A stretch of DNA of 64,000 bases from a virus: IMG/VR virus record IMGVR_UViG_3300035670_000014, positions 96,001 to 160,000 of that record. One strand, 5' to 3'. The notes under the pieces were generated by a model, which did not search any database, was not told the DNA's origin, and worked only from the letters and a program-made list of their open reading frames with translations. Shown here piece after piece: positions 564-13,906 of this stretch. How positions within the stretch are numbered: the stretch's first letter is position 1; every line of letters starts with the position of its first letter. Made by a program: the position numbers and the translations under genes.

Positions 564-887
564 TTACATTAAGGATTCTTTTATTTTAATAATGAGCGGA
601 AAGACAGACTTGAAGTGATCATTCCACTCTTTGGCTTTGTTAGATTCAAAGTCAAATGCTAAATAAGATAAAAGAGAAAAGTCAGAATCAGATTCAGCAG
701 CTGAAATAATTTCATCTGCTGTCATTTGAAAAGCTGGGATATCCTTATCAAAGAATACAAACCTGCGAGTCAAAGGGCTATAGTAAATAGAATAAACTTT
801 TCCCCTTATTGTTTCTTTACCAAGTGTGTAAGTCAGACTTTCAATGAGAGACATGCTCATTTTCCTTACGCTTCTTCTTCTGCTCAC
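564..887 (-). CDS. hypothetical protein
   Basis: ORF in a tightly packed operon; true start probably ~854. Confidence 0.5.
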   Translation of the reverse strand: MSRRRSVRKMSMSLIESLTYTLGKETIRGKVYSIYYSPLTRRFVFFDKDIPAFQMTADEIISAAESDSDFSLLSYLAFDFESNKAKEWNDHFKSVFPLIIKIKESLM

Positions 888-1473
888 AAAGCAGGATTGT
901 AGCTATAAGGTTATCTTGTGCCTCTGGGATTGGGAAGTCAGTATAGAGCATCTCCCAACACTCAAAGTAGTCAGATGGCCTAGAAGGATCGTAAGAGAGA
1001 AAAGAATAATATGAATCAATATAGGTACTTATAATCATCCTGGCTAAGTCAGACTTAAAAGGCACTACAGAAAATACTTCATTCAGATTAACTTCTGGAT
1101 GATCCTTAATAAAGTCAATGAAATCAAAAGCTTTGCTTAGTTTCTCATAAGGACAATCTCTAAAGTCCATAGATGAACCTTCAAAGATCTTCCTTAGATA
1201 AGAATCTACATCAACAATAGTATTAATAGGAGGGCTGATAAAGTAATGCTTTCCATTAAACTTCAGGAGCAATGAGGAGTCTATATAGATACAATAGTCT
1301 TCATAAGTTTTACTAAATAGTAAAGCTATAGCTTTACGAGAAGTAGAAAGATTGCCCTGAATCAAAGGAAAGTAAATTGGAGAATCAATTATGTAACTAA
1401 AAACAGTAGAATGAAAATGATTTAGGTAATAAGCACTAGCTGAAGCAATTTTAGAAATAGCAATCTTAAGCAT
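841..1473 (-). CDS. hypothetical protein
   Basis: 210-aa ORF with GGAG RBS. Confidence 0.6.
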   Translation of the reverse strand: MLKIAISKIASASAYYLNHFHSTVFSYIIDSPIYFPLIQGNLSTSRKAIALLFSKTYEDYCIYIDSSLLLKFNGKHYFISPPINTIVDVDSYLRKIFEGSSMDFRDCPYEKLSKAFDFIDFIKDHPEVNLNEVFSVVPFKSDLARMIISTYIDSYYSFLSYDPSRPSDYFECWEMLYTDFPIPEAQDNLIATILLCEQKKKRKENEHVSH

Positions 1474-1544
1474 AAAACTCCAATGATATAGCTAAAATAA
1501 ATACCCCGATGGGGTATAGTCATTTAGTTTAATGTTTACTTTTA

Positions 1545-4250
1545 CTAAAGCAGTTTCCCAACTTTAGATGCAAGTGAATTTAGTGAAGTAAAAGTCTTCT
1601 CTATCAGGTTAGGCAGAATAGAAGTATCTACTACTGAGTCTACAAAAGTCTCGACAGGAAGAGTAAGTTGCTTGATTTCATTCAAGGGAACTTTCTCAAT
1701 AATAATGTCGTCATCAAGTAGATCAATAACAGGAGGCTTAGATTCAAATTTAAACTTGAGTCTAATTCTATCCGCTAAAGCCTCAGGACAAAGAGAAGCA
1801 AAGTGTATATAAGTTTCTTTGTTTCTTTTGTTGTTAGTAGAACAGTAGTCAAGATAATGATCAATTGAATCTGCCCAAATGCCTAGAGCTTCTCGAAAGA
1901 ACTCATTGCATTTATTATGATTGCGAGAAGTAATTGCGTCAAGTAGTTCTTTACTTGATTGCTCATAAGAAACAACCTGATCGTATACACGACCCAAAGA
2001 GAAGCCTAGTACTTTTTCTGGCGCAAAGCCAGGCTTAGATACTACATGCTTAAGAAGCTGTCCTCCCTTTTGGCCATCGTAAAATCCTGCCTCAAATGAC
2101 TTTTTATCAAAAGCAAAAGACGGAGGAGTCAAGCTGCTATCACTACTGGTAAAGTTGCACTCATAAAAATAAGCAAACATGTCCCTGAAGAAAGAACTGT
2201 TAAAATCCTTAAACAGAGTCTTATTTAGAGTGGCACTACTAAGCTTAGCAAAGTTTATATCTGTGTCGATCATAAAGTCATCATCTGAAATTAGCATCGA
2301 GATATAAGTAGTAATGAAAGGCCAGGCAATATCTTCTGTAAAGCAATAGAACTTATCATCAGTAGAGAATTCATTGCTAAGAAGACTCGGATCTGACATC
2401 ACACAAGATGTACCAATAAGAGTAAGAAAGATATCATCAAAGCTAAGATTGTAAGATTCATCTGCCTTGGACTGATGCCCGTGAGACTTAAGATCTCTAT
2501 CAATGTCAATGATCCTAATCGCATGACCTGCAATGAAAGCAAAATACTCTAGCTCATTCATCCCAAATTGTGAACTTAATGATATGGGCTTAATGCCTAG
2601 CAGGCCCATATAGTAGAAATCCTCTTCGTTAGAGCAATATTTCCTAACAGCATCAAGAGTATGCCTAATGTTAGGATCATAAAAGGTATGATTATAAATT
2701 GAGCTAAATGCACTGTTAGGAGTGTCTTTAAGATTACTCATGTAGAAGTCAGCAAGATCAGGATTAACTTTCTTATACATAAGAAAGTCTAGCTCGCTAA
2801 TAAACTTGCCCCTAGACATGAGGTCTTTCATGACAGGTATGTTGTCATCTTTTAGATTAAGAAAAGATATCCTACTCTCTAGATTTGACTTGAAGAAGCC
2901 ATTTGCTTGAGTGTTAGACTTCAGATCAATGCTAGGCTGCTTCTTTGGTTCAGAAGTTGGAGCAATAGAAGTCAAACAATCAGTATTATTACTGAATAAC
3001 TCAGACCAATAGTTAATCTCTTTAGTCAATTCAGTGCCAGTAAAGTAATCAAACTTACCATTCTTGATAAGAGATTTGCTTCTACTGTTAGTCTTTGAAG
3101 TAGACTGACTAGGTGTAGTTCCACTAAAGGTCAGGTCCTTGTAAGGATAACCGACACTAATAGAAGCATCAGAAACATATGTATTACTTTTGGCAGTAGT
3201 AGTAATCTTCTTATTCTTGTAGTTAATTGAACCATAAGGCTTATTGTTCAATATGCCTTTGTCAATCTCACTAGACCATTCATTGGTCGATATCTTGAAG
3301 AGTAATGAAGTGAAGTAATCCATGTCATGCTCATTGGCATAAATGAATTTATCTTCGTTCTTGTGGCATATGCTCCAGATGTGGGGGATGGGTTCTGATT
3401 TAGAAAGAACCTTCTTCATCTCCTTTCTTGTCAGCGTACCAATGCAAGCAGCATTGTAACCAGCTGTCCTGAGAGGCATTGCGTCATTAGGAGGGCAGTT
3501 AATGTTTGCGTAAGTAGAACAAGTATGGTTCTTTACAGCTTCCTTAAACACCATAGAAGCAGAGTTGTAGCTCTGGTCAATCCAGTAGTGAGTGCCCCTT
3601 GCTGTAAGCTCCAGATTAAGAATCAGCCCGATTTTACCATATCGGTCTGTAGCCCTGAGTACATTAGCAAGTGCCTTGCTGCCTCCCATGCCTGACTCTT
3701 CTTCGTCAAGGATCGCAATCATAATATTATGATAAAGCAATCCTCCGCTGGCAAGGTAGTTACAGATCCTTTTGTTAAGAGCAATCAGGTGACAACAGCT
3801 AGCAAGGTTATCTTGAATGTTATCACTGTAAGAGTTTACTATGTCGTGATGGGCGGTAAAGACAATAGTATATTCTTCTTCTACCTTCTTAAGTCTATTC
3901 CTAACAGCTGATGACATAAAAATAGAATAAAGATTAACATTGGAAGGTTTATCCTGGTTTTTATTCTTGCTGTAGTTATGAAACTCAACTTTTGAGAATG
4001 GAGTATCACCCTGAACTGAATGGGAAGCTTGAAGCAAATAAGAAATCATCTTATCTGGTCTTTCTAGCAATCCATAGTCAGGATTAAAGACGTTAAGACT
4101 TCTATTCTGAGTGCAATGAGCTTTACTAGAAAGTAAAGACTCAGCAATAAGATAAGCATTTGAATCAAAGGGAGGCAAAGCCCCCCTTTGATTCAAGTTG
4201 TAGCTTCTAGTGTCAGGAATTTTTTCATTTGAAATACTAATGGCAACCAT
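1545..4250 (-). CDS. Large protein with N-terminal M28-like metallopeptidase domain
   Basis: AHHD, DNLAS, DEEE, LNLE and distal H Zn-ligand pattern; C-terminal half unassigned. Confidence 0.65.
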   Translation of the reverse strand: MVAISISNEKIPDTRSYNLNQRGALPPFDSNAYLIAESLLSSKAHCTQNRSLNVFNPDYGLLERPDKMISYLLQASHSVQGDTPFSKVEFHNYSKNKNQDKPSNVNLYSIFMSSAVRNRLKKVEEEYTIVFTAHHDIVNSYSDNIQDNLASCCHLIALNKRICNYLASGGLLYHNIMIAILDEEESGMGGSKALANVLRATDRYGKIGLILNLELTARGTHYWIDQSYNSASMVFKEAVKNHTCSTYANINCPPNDAMPLRTAGYNAACIGTLTRKEMKKVLSKSEPIPHIWSICHKNEDKFIYANEHDMDYFTSLLFKISTNEWSSEIDKGILNNKPYGSINYKNKKITTTAKSNTYVSDASISVGYPYKDLTFSGTTPSQSTSKTNSRSKSLIKNGKFDYFTGTELTKEINYWSELFSNNTDCLTSIAPTSEPKKQPSIDLKSNTQANGFFKSNLESRISFLNLKDDNIPVMKDLMSRGKFISELDFLMYKKVNPDLADFYMSNLKDTPNSAFSSIYNHTFYDPNIRHTLDAVRKYCSNEEDFYYMGLLGIKPISLSSQFGMNELEYFAFIAGHAIRIIDIDRDLKSHGHQSKADESYNLSFDDIFLTLIGTSCVMSDPSLLSNEFSTDDKFYCFTEDIAWPFITTYISMLISDDDFMIDTDINFAKLSSATLNKTLFKDFNSSFFRDMFAYFYECNFTSSDSSLTPPSFAFDKKSFEAGFYDGQKGGQLLKHVVSKPGFAPEKVLGFSLGRVYDQVVSYEQSSKELLDAITSRNHNKCNEFFREALGIWADSIDHYLDYCSTNNKRNKETYIHFASLCPEALADRIRLKFKFESKPPVIDLLDDDIIIEKVPLNEIKQLTLPVETFVDSVVDTSILPNLIEKTFTSLNSLASKVGKLL

Positions 4251-4510
4251 TAGCGAGTTAACGTTGCGTAGTTAACCAAGATGATTGAAGTTCCAGCTTT
4301 ACTAAATTTAAACTCATAGTTTTTATCTGGAGAAATATCAAGACGATCCGTATTTACATACGGGAAAGACTGTGAGTTCAAATAAGTACCGTCAGGCTCG
4401 CGATAGGCGACCCTCATAAGACTTGGCTTACTCGTGTTAAGGTAAGCAATCCTATCAGGGTTAACAGTAGGTTGAGAAGGGATCTTTTGCTGCGGAATCT
4501 GAGTCGCCAT
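4250..4510 (-). CDS. hypothetical protein
   Basis: ORF with stop/start overlap to the next gene. Confidence 0.55.
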   Translation of the reverse strand: MATQIPQQKIPSQPTVNPDRIAYLNTSKPSLMRVAYREPDGTYLNSQSFPYVNTDRLDISPDKNYEFKFSKAGTSIILVNYATLTR

Positions 4511-4708
4511 TAGATAACATCTTTGTTATTTTGTTAACGAAAGCCTCAACGAGGCGAGTGATATATTGAGTAATTTCATCAAGTAAATTCAAAACATAAT
4601 CTCTACCTTTTTGAGAAATGAAAAATTCAAGAACATAATCAGTGATGATTGAAGCTACTAGAGAAATAAATTTCATCAAAGTCCTTAGGTAATATACAGG
4701 AAGTCTTC

Positions 4709-5089
4709 TTAGTTAGAAGTTCCTTCCTGAGGGGTGGATAGCAAAGTCTCATCAACAGCATCCAGAACTATAGGAGTAGTTGAAGCTTCAACTGGGACTT
4801 GAGGTGTACCAGCTTCAGTTACTTCTCCTGCGTCAACTTGTACAGGTGCTGATGCTTCTTGTGCAGGAACTGTATCCGATTGTAAGTCCAAGTTACAATC
4901 TGCATAAGGTGCGTCAGCGGATCCACAAGGACCAGTACCTTCAGTCTGAGCGCTAGCTTCTAGTGCCGAACCATCTGCCGGAACGGCAGGAGTCTGGGCG
5001 CTAAAAGCCCAGTATCCTAGGATCGATAGAATAATCAAGATTGCTAGAATTGACGAAAGAACTGGGTTGGGAGTTGAAAGTGATCTCAT
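4709..5089 (-). CDS. Membrane-anchored or secreted acidic low-complexity protein
   Basis: N-terminal hydrophobic helix, Ala/Glu/Pro-rich tail, GAGG RBS. Confidence 0.6.
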   Translation of the reverse strand: MRSLSTPNPVLSSILAILIILSILGYWAFSAQTPAVPADGSALEASAQTEGTGPCGSADAPYADCNLDLQSDTVPAQEASAPVQVDAGEVTEAGTPQVPVEASTTPIVLDAVDETLLSTPQEGTSN

Positions 5090-5847: not shown

Positions 5848-6136
5848 TTTAAGGTATGATAAGATTATATGTTATAGGTATAGTATGAATTGGAACATTA
5901 AACCAGACAAAGATTTGCTCGAAAAACTTGTTTGGGATTATTCATTAGTTGAATTATCCCTGTTCTTCGAGACATCTAATAAAACAATTGAAAAAAAATG
6001 CAAAGAGCTTAATATTGAATTGCCGCCTAAGGGGTACTGGCACACAGGAGCCAGAAGAGATTCAAAGATTAAAAGACTTGAATCACTCTTTTCTCTCAAA
6101 GAAAAAATACAAAGTCCACAAGAAGCCGGCAAATAG
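5840..6136 (+). CDS. small HTH-like DNA-binding protein
   Basis: LEKLVW..SLVELS..F..S..TI.K.CK.LNI.LPPKGYW pattern; true start probably 5886. Confidence 0.45.
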   Translation: MFILRYDKIICYRYSMNWNIKPDKDLLEKLVWDYSLVELSLFFETSNKTIEKKCKELNIELPPKGYWHTGARRDSKIKRLESLFSLKEKIQSPQEAGK

Positions 6137-10676: not shown

Positions 10677-10852
10677 ATGTTACTGGATATTGTTCTTTCT
10701 CAGTATTCATTGAATGACTTAAATAGGGGTAATGTCGTAATAAAGACACAAAACCCATGTTGAGTTTCGTTTATAATTTACTTGTATCGGATATAAAAGG
10801 CAAGTAAAGATAAACCAAAAGAAAGAAGGTGAAACCTTCTAGGTTTCACCTT

Positions 10853-11743
10853 TTAGAAAGCATACCTTATCCTGCAATAGGGGATGTACTCTTGTATTAC
10901 AGATTTAAAATTAGAAACACTTTTAGCCTTTAAATCGTATTTATAGCAAATAACATCAGGCTTGTTGTATTTAGTTTGTTGACTCTTAGGATTCCAAAGG
11001 AATGATTCTCCCTTTGGGTTCCATACTTCGTTGATCTTATGAAGCTGCTCACTATGGGTGAGCATTATGACTTCACAAGCAAGTTGATCTTTGGCCTTCT
11101 GAGATAAAGTTGAATCAATAAGCTGGAAAAGCTTAATCCAGTCCTGCCTGGCACCAGGATAAAGAATCACCGGACTAAAGTTCAAGTGAACTTCATAGCC
11201 GGCATCAACAAGTTGATTGATTGCATTTATTCTTGCTGATATTTGACTAGTCCTGATGTCAACATATTGGGATATAGATTGAGGCATAAGGCTATACCTT
11301 ATCCTTACCCTATCCCCAGGATCAAAAGCCAGTAGAGGGGCAATATTGACCGTTTTAGTAGCAAAGCTAACCTTAGCATTCTCGCTGTGCTTAACAGCTT
11401 CCATTATTTCCAGTGGAATGTTGGAAATCATAAGGTCAAGGCTTACATCATTGTTATTACCAATGTCATAAGTCCAATACTTGGAATCACACTGATTAGG
11501 TTCAAGCTTAGGACCCAAAGAGTTAGAATGAGAAATTATAGAATCTATAACATCATCTGTATTAACAAATATAGTAACAGGATTAGAACCACCCTTTCTA
11601 CGAGCCGTATAACAGTTGTGAGTTAGAATATTTTCAGCAAAATAATTTTCATAAACAGGAACATGGAAATTATAAACAGTCGTATTTTTTTCAATTTTCT
11701 TTATACTTTGAATTTTAGAAAACTTAGGAGTTTTAAGTTGCAT
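10853..11743 (-). CDS. Split intein C-fragment (43 aa, 11743-11615) fused to the C-terminal part of spore photoproduct lyase
   Basis: VYNFHV..ENYFAENILTHN/C intein end, then CYTARRK, SFATK, RIRYSLMP, GYEVHLNFSPVI. Confidence 0.9.
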   Translation of the reverse strand: MQLKTPKFSKIQSIKKIEKNTTVYNFHVPVYENYFAENILTHNCYTARRKGGSNPVTIFVNTDDVIDSIISHSNSLGPKLEPNQCDSKYWTYDIGNNNDVSLDLMISNIPLEIMEAVKHSENAKVSFATKTVNIAPLLAFDPGDRVRIRYSLMPQSISQYVDIRTSQISARINAINQLVDAGYEVHLNFSPVILYPGARQDWIKLFQLIDSTLSQKAKDQLACEVIMLTHSEQLHKINEVWNPKGESFLWNPKSQQTKYNKPDVICYKYDLKAKSVSNFKSVIQEYIPYCRIRYAF

Positions 11744-12574
11744 AACTGTTCTGTTTGTGGAAAGTTTACTAATAAAAAATGCTGTGAAGAAAAAGTATTC
11801 CTAGAGAAAGGTTTAGTATTTAACTATCACAGTGAAGCTGCAAGATATTTTAATGTAGATTCAAGATATGCAAAAAGAAAACTCTATAATGTAAACTATA
11901 CTTTAAGTGAAATAAAAATAACAAAAAACAGCAAACTAGTTAATTGTAAAATTTGCAATCAATCATCAATAACTTCAAAATGTAGAGCTGGATATTGTAA
12001 AAATTGCTCTCGTAAAGGATTAGGTAAGAAAACTAGAGGAATAGAATTAAGAAATAAATACCTTGGAGAGAAAAATCCAAACTTTAAAGATGGTAAAGCA
12101 AGGCAGTCGATAAGAAACAGACATGAATGGAAAGAAATAAGAAAAGAAATTCTTTCAGAAAGACAATGCTGTGAAGTAAGTGGACATAGTAAATACTTAC
12201 ATCTTCATCATATATTGCCAGTTTGCTTATTTCCACAATATTCATTAGAAAAATGGAACATTATTGTTCTTCAGGCTAATCTACACATAGAAGTTCATCG
12301 TCAAGATTTAGATATTGTGCTTCTACCCAACCTCTGTTCTTTGTATAAAGAGGATGTTCACCTGATACGCGAAGAGTTCGTCCGTCAACTGAAATTTCAT
12401 AAATTTCACTTACTTGACGAGATGCCAAATGAAAAGCTTGAGCTACTAAAGGAGAACCAGAATTGGTATCGTAAGAAATTACATCTGATCCCGATAGAAT
12501 TTGTTCTACAGGAATTTGGCCACTTGGAGTGGATATCAAAGTTCCTTCTTCCACGCAGTAGAGGCAAGAACTAA
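11663..12574 (+). CDS. HNH homing endonuclease with Zn-finger and NUMOD-like segments, antisense to the SPL gene
   Basis: CKIC, CKNC, GEKNPNFKDG, CEVSG...HLHHILP...NIIVL..NLH.EVH. Confidence 0.85.
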   Translation: MEIINSRIFFNFLYTLNFRKLRSFKLHNCSVCGKFTNKKCCEEKVFLEKGLVFNYHSEAARYFNVDSRYAKRKLYNVNYTLSEIKITKNSKLVNCKICNQSSITSKCRAGYCKNCSRKGLGKKTRGIELRNKYLGEKNPNFKDGKARQSIRNRHEWKEIRKEILSERQCCEVSGHSKYLHLHHILPVCLFPQYSLEKWNIIVLQANLHIEVHRQDLDIVLLPNLCSLYKEDVHLIREEFVRQLKFHKFHLLDEMPNEKLELLKENQNWYRKKLHLIPIEFVLQEFGHLEWISKFLLPRSRGKN

Positions 12575-12866
12575 AACAGCCGTTTGCATGAGACGGCGGA
12601 ATAAAATCAGTTGACCTTCCAGAATCAGTCATTGCCATATTAGACATACGACCAATAACAAGAACATGTCTTTTATTTGCTATCCAATCTACAGGATCGG
12701 CCTTAGCTAAATCTGGAATAAGCCAGTGATTCTTAACATATTTAACTTCATAGTTAGAGCCAGAATCTGCAAGCTTTTGACAGATTGATGTGATTCTAGA
12801 TATTTCCTTTTCACTATAATTACAATTCTGTATATAAAGAGTATTTATATCACTCAGTTTAATCAC
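12276..12866 (-). CDS. Spore photoproduct lyase N-terminal part fused to split intein N-fragment (93 aa, 12557-12279)
   Basis: GRSTDFIPPSHANGCFSSCLY/CVEEGTLISTPSG...SGEHPLY...WVEAQYLNLDDEL; likely GTG start at 12866 after a GGGGA RBS. Confidence 0.9.
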   Translation of the reverse strand: MIKLSDINTLYIQNCNYSEKEISRITSICQKLADSGSNYEVKYVKNHWLIPDLAKADPVDWIANKRHVLVIGRMSNMAMTDSGRSTDFIPPSHANGCFSSCLYCVEEGTLISTPSGQIPVEQILSGSDVISYDTNSGSPLVAQAFHLASRQVSEIYEISVDGRTLRVSGEHPLYTKNRGWVEAQYLNLDDELLCVD

Positions 12867-12916
12867 TAGGTCCCCTTGGTTGGTATTAAGAAAAGGCCCC
12901 AAGGGGCCAGATAGAG

Positions 12917-13799: not shown

Positions 13800-13831
13800 T
13801 TTTACCTTAATATAGGTTAGATTTAGTTAAG

Positions 13832-13906
13832 TACGCCTGGAAGGATTCGAACCTCCGACCGATCGGGTAGAAACCGATTGCTGCTATCCAACTGAGCTAC
13901 AGGCGC
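13832..13906 (-). tRNA. tRNA-Arg(TCT)
   Basis: Cloverleaf; anticodon arm ATCGG-TTTCTAC-CCGAT; CCA not encoded. Confidence 0.92.

Follow-up and report, generated by a model that had tools for sequence, protein, structure and literature searches.

A predicted HNH nuclease gene runs antisense through the N-terminal splicing domain of a split intein in phage radical-SAM genes

The SPL-like radical-SAM gene considered here lies on the minus strand of a 64,000-nucleotide stretch of viral DNA (positions 96,001 to 160,000 of IMG/VR virus record IMGVR_UViG_3300035670_000014), referred to as the window; the record is complete at 170,948 bp, has terminal repeats and represents a freshwater phage. The gene is divided between two open reading frames (ORFs), an N half at 12866/12902..12276 and a C half at 11743..10853, which carry the N-terminal (IntN) and C-terminal (IntC) parts of a split intein, and a predicted HNH endonuclease gene stands between them on the opposite strand (Table 1). 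The two ORFs are adjacent, keep the same order and strand and are collinear with an unbroken orthologue, which is the layout of the fractured genes. An earlier note, made from the letters of the window, had described the HNH gene as lying antisense between the intein halves and interlocked with them by dual coding; for IntN this is borne out by stop avoidance and by constraint on two reading frames, which together indicate that the 3′ part of the nuclease gene and the N-terminal splicing domain are read from the same DNA.

By its sequence, the product of the host gene is an SPL-family radical-SAM protein, either SPL proper or a relative. The C half matches the Pfam SPL family (PF20903) with an E-value of 7e-20 and 71.6 bits against a curated cut-off of 27, and the C-extein is 93% identical to the intein-less orthologue P0121. 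The N-extein has a weak Pfam SPL match and is collinear, at 87% identity, with intein-less orthologues of 355-356 aa. The joined exteins make 356 aa and align end to end on P0121 and P0122 (355-356 aa) across CFSSCLY/CYTARRKG, where the slash marks the junction, and the intein is therefore placed at the third Cys of the CxxxCxxC motif, which is complete only once the exteins are joined. The residues expected for splicing are present at the junctions, with Cys1 in C/VEEG, the block-B His in the GEHP block, and the terminal His-Asn followed by the +1 nucleophile in THN/C. IntN matches Hint and intein families in Pfam below their cut-offs, and among solved structures it matches the bacterial intein-like domain 2LWY (BIL domain, E 1.3e-8) and the NrdJ-1 intein (E 1.7e-6). 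IntC matches Pfam Intein_splicing at positions 120-155 (E 3.5e-5), and its matches to intein-part profiles fall below cut-off. Since a consensus scan places a terminator-like hairpin directly after the C-half stop and none between the two halves, the halves probably share one transcript. A second hairpin, GC-rich and with a T run, lies at 12895-12908 on the minus strand, just past the upstream gene, and covers the first codons of the mechanically called N-half ORF; GTG 12866 is favored as the start of the N half on this account.

The plus-strand product is a predicted nuclease of the HNH (beta-beta-alpha-metal) endonuclease family. It matches HNH endonucleases in PHROG (E 1.5e-8 and 4e-8), its profile matches in the PDB include the HNH domains of IscB and McrA, and its structure model matches the HNH protein of phage GVE2 with a VIA Z score of 7.2. 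The window's own protein matches neither HNH_2 nor HNH of Pfam at E 0.01, and within its family HNH_2 is matched by 11 of 27 members, HNH by 3 of 27 and NUMOD1 by one; the family also has CxxC pairs and a GxxNPNYxxG motif. No variation is seen at residues H157, H158, N174, H183 and H187 across 27 diverse relatives whose mean column identity is 29%. The end of the motif, LHIEVH at 12281-12298, lies opposite the last IntN codons (D-E-L-L-C-V-D), as the earlier note had observed. The last two catalytic His residues are encoded opposite dispensable C-terminal residues of IntN, which vary freely between loci (VD, DMNGLIQ, ESRGLIL and others). A tblastn search of phage records with the HNH protein matched only the motif, over 37-45 aa, in T4-like and Dickeya phages.

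Table 1. Features of the split radical-SAM locus and its relatives; positions refer to the window except where another locus is named.
Feature	Position	Strand	Details
Candidate mobile cassette	11615..12557	both	943 bp: IntN, inverted HNH, IntC
N-extein	12558..12866	-	103 aa from GTG 12866; ends C-F-S-S-C-L-Y, with the first two Cys of CxxxCxxC
IntN	12276..12557	-	93 aa and stop; Cys1 codon 12557-12555, GEHP block, stop 12278-12276
IntC	11615..11743	-	43 aa, ends T-H-N, then Cys+1; ATG 11743-11741 overlaps HNH codons 1-2
C-extein	10853..11614	-	253 aa and stop; opens with the third Cys of CxxxCxxC, codon 11614-11612
Predicted HNH homing-endonuclease gene	11738..12574	+	278 aa from TTG 11738; mechanical ORF from ATG 11663, 303 aa
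HNH catalytic motif (predicted)	12206..12298	+	HH 12206-12211, N 12257-12259, H 12284-12286, H 12296-12298
Dual-coded stretch	12279..12571	both	plus: HNH residues 181-278; minus: IntN residues 1-93 and five N-extein codons
AGGAG	11726..11730	+	7 nt upstream of TTG 11738, within the first IntC codons
Terminator-like hairpin	10826..10852	-	12-bp stem and T run, directly after the C-half stop; consensus scan only
L169 sister locus	N half 4058-4750; C half 811-1545	-	positions in L169

The same layout is seen again in 14 viral loci and about 40 from metagenomes, which fall into three lineages, of which A comprises the window and locus L081, B is a large freshwater clade, and C consists of L107, L116 and L163. 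When viral contigs were scanned with the C half, 284 SPL loci emerged; 80 were kept, and of these 14 have the same layout and the others are unbroken. Nuclease alignments, used as queries in further scans, brought in 50 metagenome loci, for the most part with a freshwater label, and 41 viral loci, whereas a viral scan with the window nuclease alone gave no match. Between lineages the nuclease is 33-35% identical and IntN, judged by eye, roughly 40-50%. Wherever a locus extends far enough, its nuclease ORF continues through antisense IntN, and homologous HNH genes that stop before the overlap, which the earlier note had named as evidence that would speak against dual coding, were not seen among the loci compared. 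It is plausible that an inverted insertion split a contiguous intein, as that note had proposed; a search for longer proteins that would represent the contiguous form of the gene gave intein-less SPLs only, which is weak evidence of its absence. The lineage-C SPL genes (L116 362-760, L163 4072-4485 and L107 773-1066) read CLGGCMKSYC before the intein, with CxxxCxxxxC spacing in place of CxxxCxxC, and the N-half ORF of L107 begins only at MKSYC, where the N-extein seems cut off or frameshifted.

A sister cassette occurs in a second host gene, a PflA/AmmeMemo-like radical-SAM gene of a 548-kb viral record (L169 1-4750, G001), at the same Cys and with the junction GCSLKCVF/CENWQIS. Its HNH gene is frameshifted into ORFs at 3318-3986 and 3874-4347, the tail ORF ending 5 nt short of the Cys1 codon, and two extra ORFs, at 1599-2687 on the minus strand and 2852-3100 on the plus strand, lie between the nuclease and IntC.

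Further evidence that the cassette moves comes from alleles that do not contain it. In phages ~98% identical to the window, represented by contigs from the freshwater runs X4 and X6, the cassette is absent exactly at the intein borders; the X4 and X6 contigs lack 954 and 956 nt but have 11 and 13 other letters in their place, so that 943 nt are missing on balance, and the empty alleles read SSCIY/CYTARR and SSCLF/C. Divergence between the window and L081 is 2.1% in the exteins, ~6% in IntN and IntC and 16.4% in the nuclease core (11744-12275), where the changes fall mostly on third codon positions (26/13/49 for positions 1, 2 and 3). This mosaic suggests either exchange of the cassette or faster evolution of the nuclease, and because divergence of the cassette is decoupled from that of the exteins, the cassette has its own history. 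Beside the insertion site, 7 of 12 N-extein letters (12558-12571) differ from the X4 empty allele, mostly silently (Ser and Cys recoded, Leu/Ile), and the C-extein side is unchanged; the recoded letters may shield the nuclease target or mark a co-conversion tract.

An alternative is that the HNH protein no longer acts in homing and is kept for another task, such as regulation of the split gene or assistance to the intein, with vertical inheritance of the cassette and rare precise loss. Co-option of homing endonucleases is known, HO endonuclease being the example cited in a preprint, and the frameshifted copy in the 548-kb phage and the fact that nuclease activity is predicted from sequence are in keeping with such a role. 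This explanation is nevertheless improbable, as the catalytic HH/N/H/H residues are invariant across the 27 diverse members, the nuclease-core changes are mostly at third positions, the divergences of cassette and exteins are decoupled, the cassette is missing from the empty allele precisely between the intein borders, and it is present in a second host gene.

The nuclease ORF extends over the intein portion of the N-half ORF in its entirety and stops at 12572-12574, 17 nt past the Cys1 codon, so that the antisense overlap on the upstream half amounts to 299 nt in the window. Over IntN, position 1 of the HNH codons lies opposite IntN position 1, position 2 opposite 3, and position 3 opposite 2. 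Among the three antisense frames, this one has the highest density of stops in the window's genes, 7.5% per codon, and 93 open codons in it have a geometric probability of 7e-4; synonymous resampling of the window IntN left the frame open with a probability of 0.0016-0.004, and the plus frame continued over the window N-extein meets 12 stops in 109 codons. Across the three lineages, all of the 40 distinct IntN DNAs are free of antisense stops from intein codon 9-11 to the end, where synonymous resampling gives an expectation of 2.7-7.9 stops and a probability of an open frame of 0-0.03 for each. In most of the 40, stops cluster within a few codons just past the nuclease's own stop. That stop lies ~8 codons inside the intein in lineages B and C (22-31 nt past the first Cys1 base) and 14 codons further on in lineage A.

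The patterns of substitution, examined in 35 distinct clade-B loci, point in the same direction and show the synonymous-site constraint across homologs that the earlier note had suggested as a check. In the IntN frame, synonymous divergence (pS) is 0.09 in the overlap, compared with 0.51 in the nuclease core, 0.36 in IntC and 0.65 in the C-extein, and it is below the C-extein value in 567 of 567 pairs compared. Differences at IntN codon positions 1, 2 and 3 are.081/.107/.068 over codons 10-98 and.044/.037/.396 over codons 1-9. Third-position diversity is 0.46 in the N-extein, 0.40 in IntN codons 1-9, 0.07 in the overlap and 0.28 in the nuclease core, and 64 of 89 third positions are invariant in the overlap versus 34 of 183 in the core. 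Strong two-frame constraint begins at about IntN codon 10-14, with the drop in diversity near codon 14. Among 17 independent (non-overlapping) pairs, third positions differ by 3.9% versus 16.8% (Fisher P 5e-40), and Mann-Whitney tests gave 8e-19 and 2e-13. Read in the nuclease frame, the overlap has the normal pattern in which position 2 is least and position 3 most variable. Mean amino-acid identity reaches 89.4% in the nuclease tail, as against 83.3% for IntN read from the same DNA and 81.7% in the nuclease core; as tail identity exceeds IntN identity on the same DNA, the nuclease reading is held more tightly than IntN. Recent spread of the cassette cannot explain the dip, because both flanks, within the same cassette, are far more variable. 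The overlap with IntN is, on these substitution patterns, true dual coding in which purifying selection keeps both readings over ~80-90 codons.

Constraint at the level of RNA or DNA, through antisense-RNA pairing, a structured element or the protected site of the nuclease, could also lower synonymous change in IntN. Two overlapping opposite transcripts are to be expected at such a locus, and the N-extein letters beside the site are recoded relative to the empty allele. Constraint of this kind leaves the avoidance of stops in one specific frame unexplained, however, the rates follow the HNH frame (.069 at position 2 and.109 at position 3), and the dip spans ~255 nt without a gap, which makes it a very unlikely account of the overlap.

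The part of the nuclease encoded opposite IntN forms a C-terminal tail that recurs widely in the family. A profile search of 1.84 billion representatives yielded 119 proteins, and ~25 clusters at the 50% identity level matched through the tail; the majority of distant HNH relatives match the core only and end 0-48 aa after the motif, and in two distant loci the nuclease stop lies 12-16 residues past the last His. The AF2 model, built on a 27-row alignment, has a mean pLDDT of 86.6 and places tail helices at 191-270, with block means of 92-94 for residues 181-220 and 71-92 for residues 221-270. A Foldseek comparison of the nuclease model with the PDB returned nothing at E 0.001 or better, the VIA-wide structure search gave HNH-core matches only (Z up to 7.2), with weak rows extending to residue 217-230 and a few to ~250, and the ESM Atlas search with the tail alone gave no usable match. 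Scans with the divergent tailed members P0023 and P0026 found no DNA. On the model and alignment, the tail would be a helical domain born by read-through into antisense IntN on which the nuclease now depends, most likely to bind DNA or to pack against the HNH core, although this role is a guess. As such a tail would be both needed by the nuclease and encoded on IntN, nuclease and intein would not be separable by deletion. Neutral read-through, by which the nuclease is complete at the HNH motif and the 90-codon tail is junk kept by a chance lack of stops, agrees with the short distant relatives, with the last 4-14 tail codons, which are unconstrained and differ between the window and L081, and with the shift of the stop position between lineages, but it is largely refuted and scarcely credible given the low probability of an open frame in each of the 40 IntN DNAs, a 5- to 7-fold fall in IntN synonymous change exactly within the overlap, and a tail more conserved than the nuclease core.

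The situation at the other end of the nuclease gene is different. The earlier note had correctly recorded a plus-strand ORF at 11663-12574 that shares 81 nt with the C-half ORF, extends across IntN in full and ends 17 nt past Cys1, and had concluded that both intein halves are overprinted; this stands for IntN and fails for IntC, where the conserved start leaves an overlap of a few nucleotides. ATG 11663 was considered as the true start and rejected. Two JGI homologues of the nuclease (98% and 83% identical) are called at 278 aa, which corresponds to TTG 11738; the AGGAG upstream of that codon is found in L081 too; and clade B has an ATG at the aligned position, which forms CATG with the opposite-strand IntC start. 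In clade B, IntC codon positions differ by.099/.054/.231, with the third most variable, a largely single-coding pattern. Given the evidence for TTG 11738 and the single-coding character of IntC, the 81-nt overlap is probably not coding and the true overlap would measure 6 nt for the window and, as CATG, 2 nt for clade B. All relatives have an open frame ahead of the nuclease start; the antisense frame over IntC has 4% stops per codon, from which 43 open codons are expected ~17% of the time. At 11663, L081 and contigs of runs X5, X6 and X8 have GTG, and an ATG or GTG start there is possible in the window's lineage. Among the last 36 third positions of clade-B IntC, 16 are invariant, and a run of invariant third positions at codons 19-28 (e.g., L006 ~6060-6090), 57-84 nt upstream of the nuclease start, could be a nuclease promoter embedded in the intein gene. 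A sigma-70 consensus scan gave 8 sites versus 8.9 expected and hence no signal, and no terminator-like site was seen after the HNH gene on the plus strand in the consensus scan.

Taken together, the data indicate, with a probability of about 0.82, a composite 943-bp selfish element at the third Cys of CxxxCxxC in which the tail of the nuclease is dual-coded with IntN and both readings are selected. Each gene half would be translated on its own from a minus-strand transcript that the two probably share, and IntN and IntC would associate and trans-splice to yield the 356-aa enzyme with its motif restored. The plus-strand nuclease would cut cassette-free alleles of co-infecting relatives, and repair of the cut allele would copy in the whole cassette. 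Several points weigh against this interpretation. Trans-splicing and nuclease cleavage are predictions from sequence, and no RNA run was found to contain the stretch, which does not show that either strand is silent. The fine-scale selection signal comes from clade B, the window's own lineage being represented by two full sequences and contigs, and clade B has no Shine-Dalgarno-like motif before its ATG. As to the tail, AF2 confidence may reflect alignment covariation shaped by IntN, family-wide conservation of tail motifs could partly mirror conserved intein blocks, and Foldseek, VIA and the ESM Atlas gave no structural match outside the HNH core, which does not imply a novel fold. A bolder version, in which the tail arose de novo from the gene of a Hint fold read backwards, became the most constrained part of the nuclease and belongs to a welded selfish unit that recognizes CxxxCxxC-coding DNA and hops between unrelated radical-SAM genes, is tentative, and the odds lean against it.

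Elsewhere in the window there are six minus-strand tRNA genes, at 13831-13906 and five further sites, namely Arg-TCT, Lys-TTT, two Leu-TAA, Met-CAT and Arg-CCT. Jumbo-phage tRNA-Arg genes match the Arg-TCT gene at 79-83% identity, and in a blastn search against phage records only a tRNA matched.

The locus can be compared with several known systems. Fractured genes were described from phage-like environmental DNA loci (Dassa, London, Stoddard, Schueler-Furman and Pietrokovski 2009, PMC2677866), with GIY-YIG or Vsr-like nucleases that overlap the downstream IntC start by 6-69 bp and with HNH nucleases only foreseen as a possibility. As in those loci, the host gene here is divided into two adjacent genes in the original order and the intein is split at the usual point of endonuclease insertion, and IntN is detectably similar to their NrdJ-1 intein. 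Unlike those loci, the nuclease here is of the HNH type and inverted, on the strand opposite the host gene, with head-to-head sharing of start codons with IntC and with 272-299 nt of its 3′ part antisense to IntN.

Antisense or out-of-frame endonuclease ORFs in inteins have been recorded since Gorbalenya 1998 and Gogarten 2002, according to a preprint that cites them (bioRxiv 10.1101/2025.01.02.630785), and the second ORFs of non-canonical inteins typically lie outside the splicing domain, that of the dnaX intein running over a disordered linker (bioRxiv 10.64898/2026.09.14.751524). The present cassette shares with non-canonical inteins a separate nuclease ORF over intein coding sequence, a synonymous drop in the overlap and an element that still spreads. 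Those inteins are contiguous, have LAGLIDADG, Vsr-like or EndoVII-like nucleases and place the ORF over an unstructured linker, whereas here the intein is split and the overlap falls on the N-terminal splicing domain, with two functional folds on one DNA. Phage Aeh1 has a split nrdA with the HNH gene mobE between its halves, as summarized in PMC2677866 and PMC3045599. The arrangement is alike in that an HNH homing-endonuclease gene separates the halves of a phage gene, which in Aeh1 yield an active enzyme; as far as those summaries go, Aeh1 differs in having no intein, non-covalent assembly, co-oriented genes in one operon and no long dual coding.

As a long antisense overlap, the locus has a second frame on the opposite strand under purifying selection, as expected of this class. 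Most prokaryotic antisense overlaps are contested and lineage-restricted, whereas this one is seen in ~40 distinct sequences, three diverged lineages and two host genes, and its older partner is a well-understood fold. Modular phage HNH homing endonucleases, of the I-HmuI type or bearing NUMODs, have a central beta-beta-alpha-metal motif flanked by small DNA-binding modules. The present family resembles them in the NUMOD1 match of one member, the CxxC pairs and the GxxNPNYxxG motif, and differs in a C-terminal helical part that is antisense to an intein and has no detectable relative outside the cassette family. A literature search turned up no paper describing an HNH gene that lies antisense to a split intein, an overlap with a splicing domain, or inteins placed in the radical-SAM motif of SPL genes in phages. 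As both fractured genes and inteins with antisense nucleases are already known, the new feature is the antisense overlap on the splicing domain itself.

In the cassette, the same 255-270 nt specify functional parts of two proteins, one per strand, and both constraints can be measured, which makes it a natural example of uncommon clarity. Long antisense overlaps are a matter of dispute in prokaryotes and phages, and the present one is amenable to direct testing with two small proteins. It adds an inverted form with an HNH nuclease to the series of fractured genes, and it supplies a natural family of split inteins with Cys at +1 inside an iron-sulfur motif as well as a nuclease family that is likely aimed at radical-SAM motif DNA. 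It also suggests a route by which a homing nuclease may leave its usual cycle of decay, since loss of the 3′ part of its gene would also destroy the intein and the host gene.

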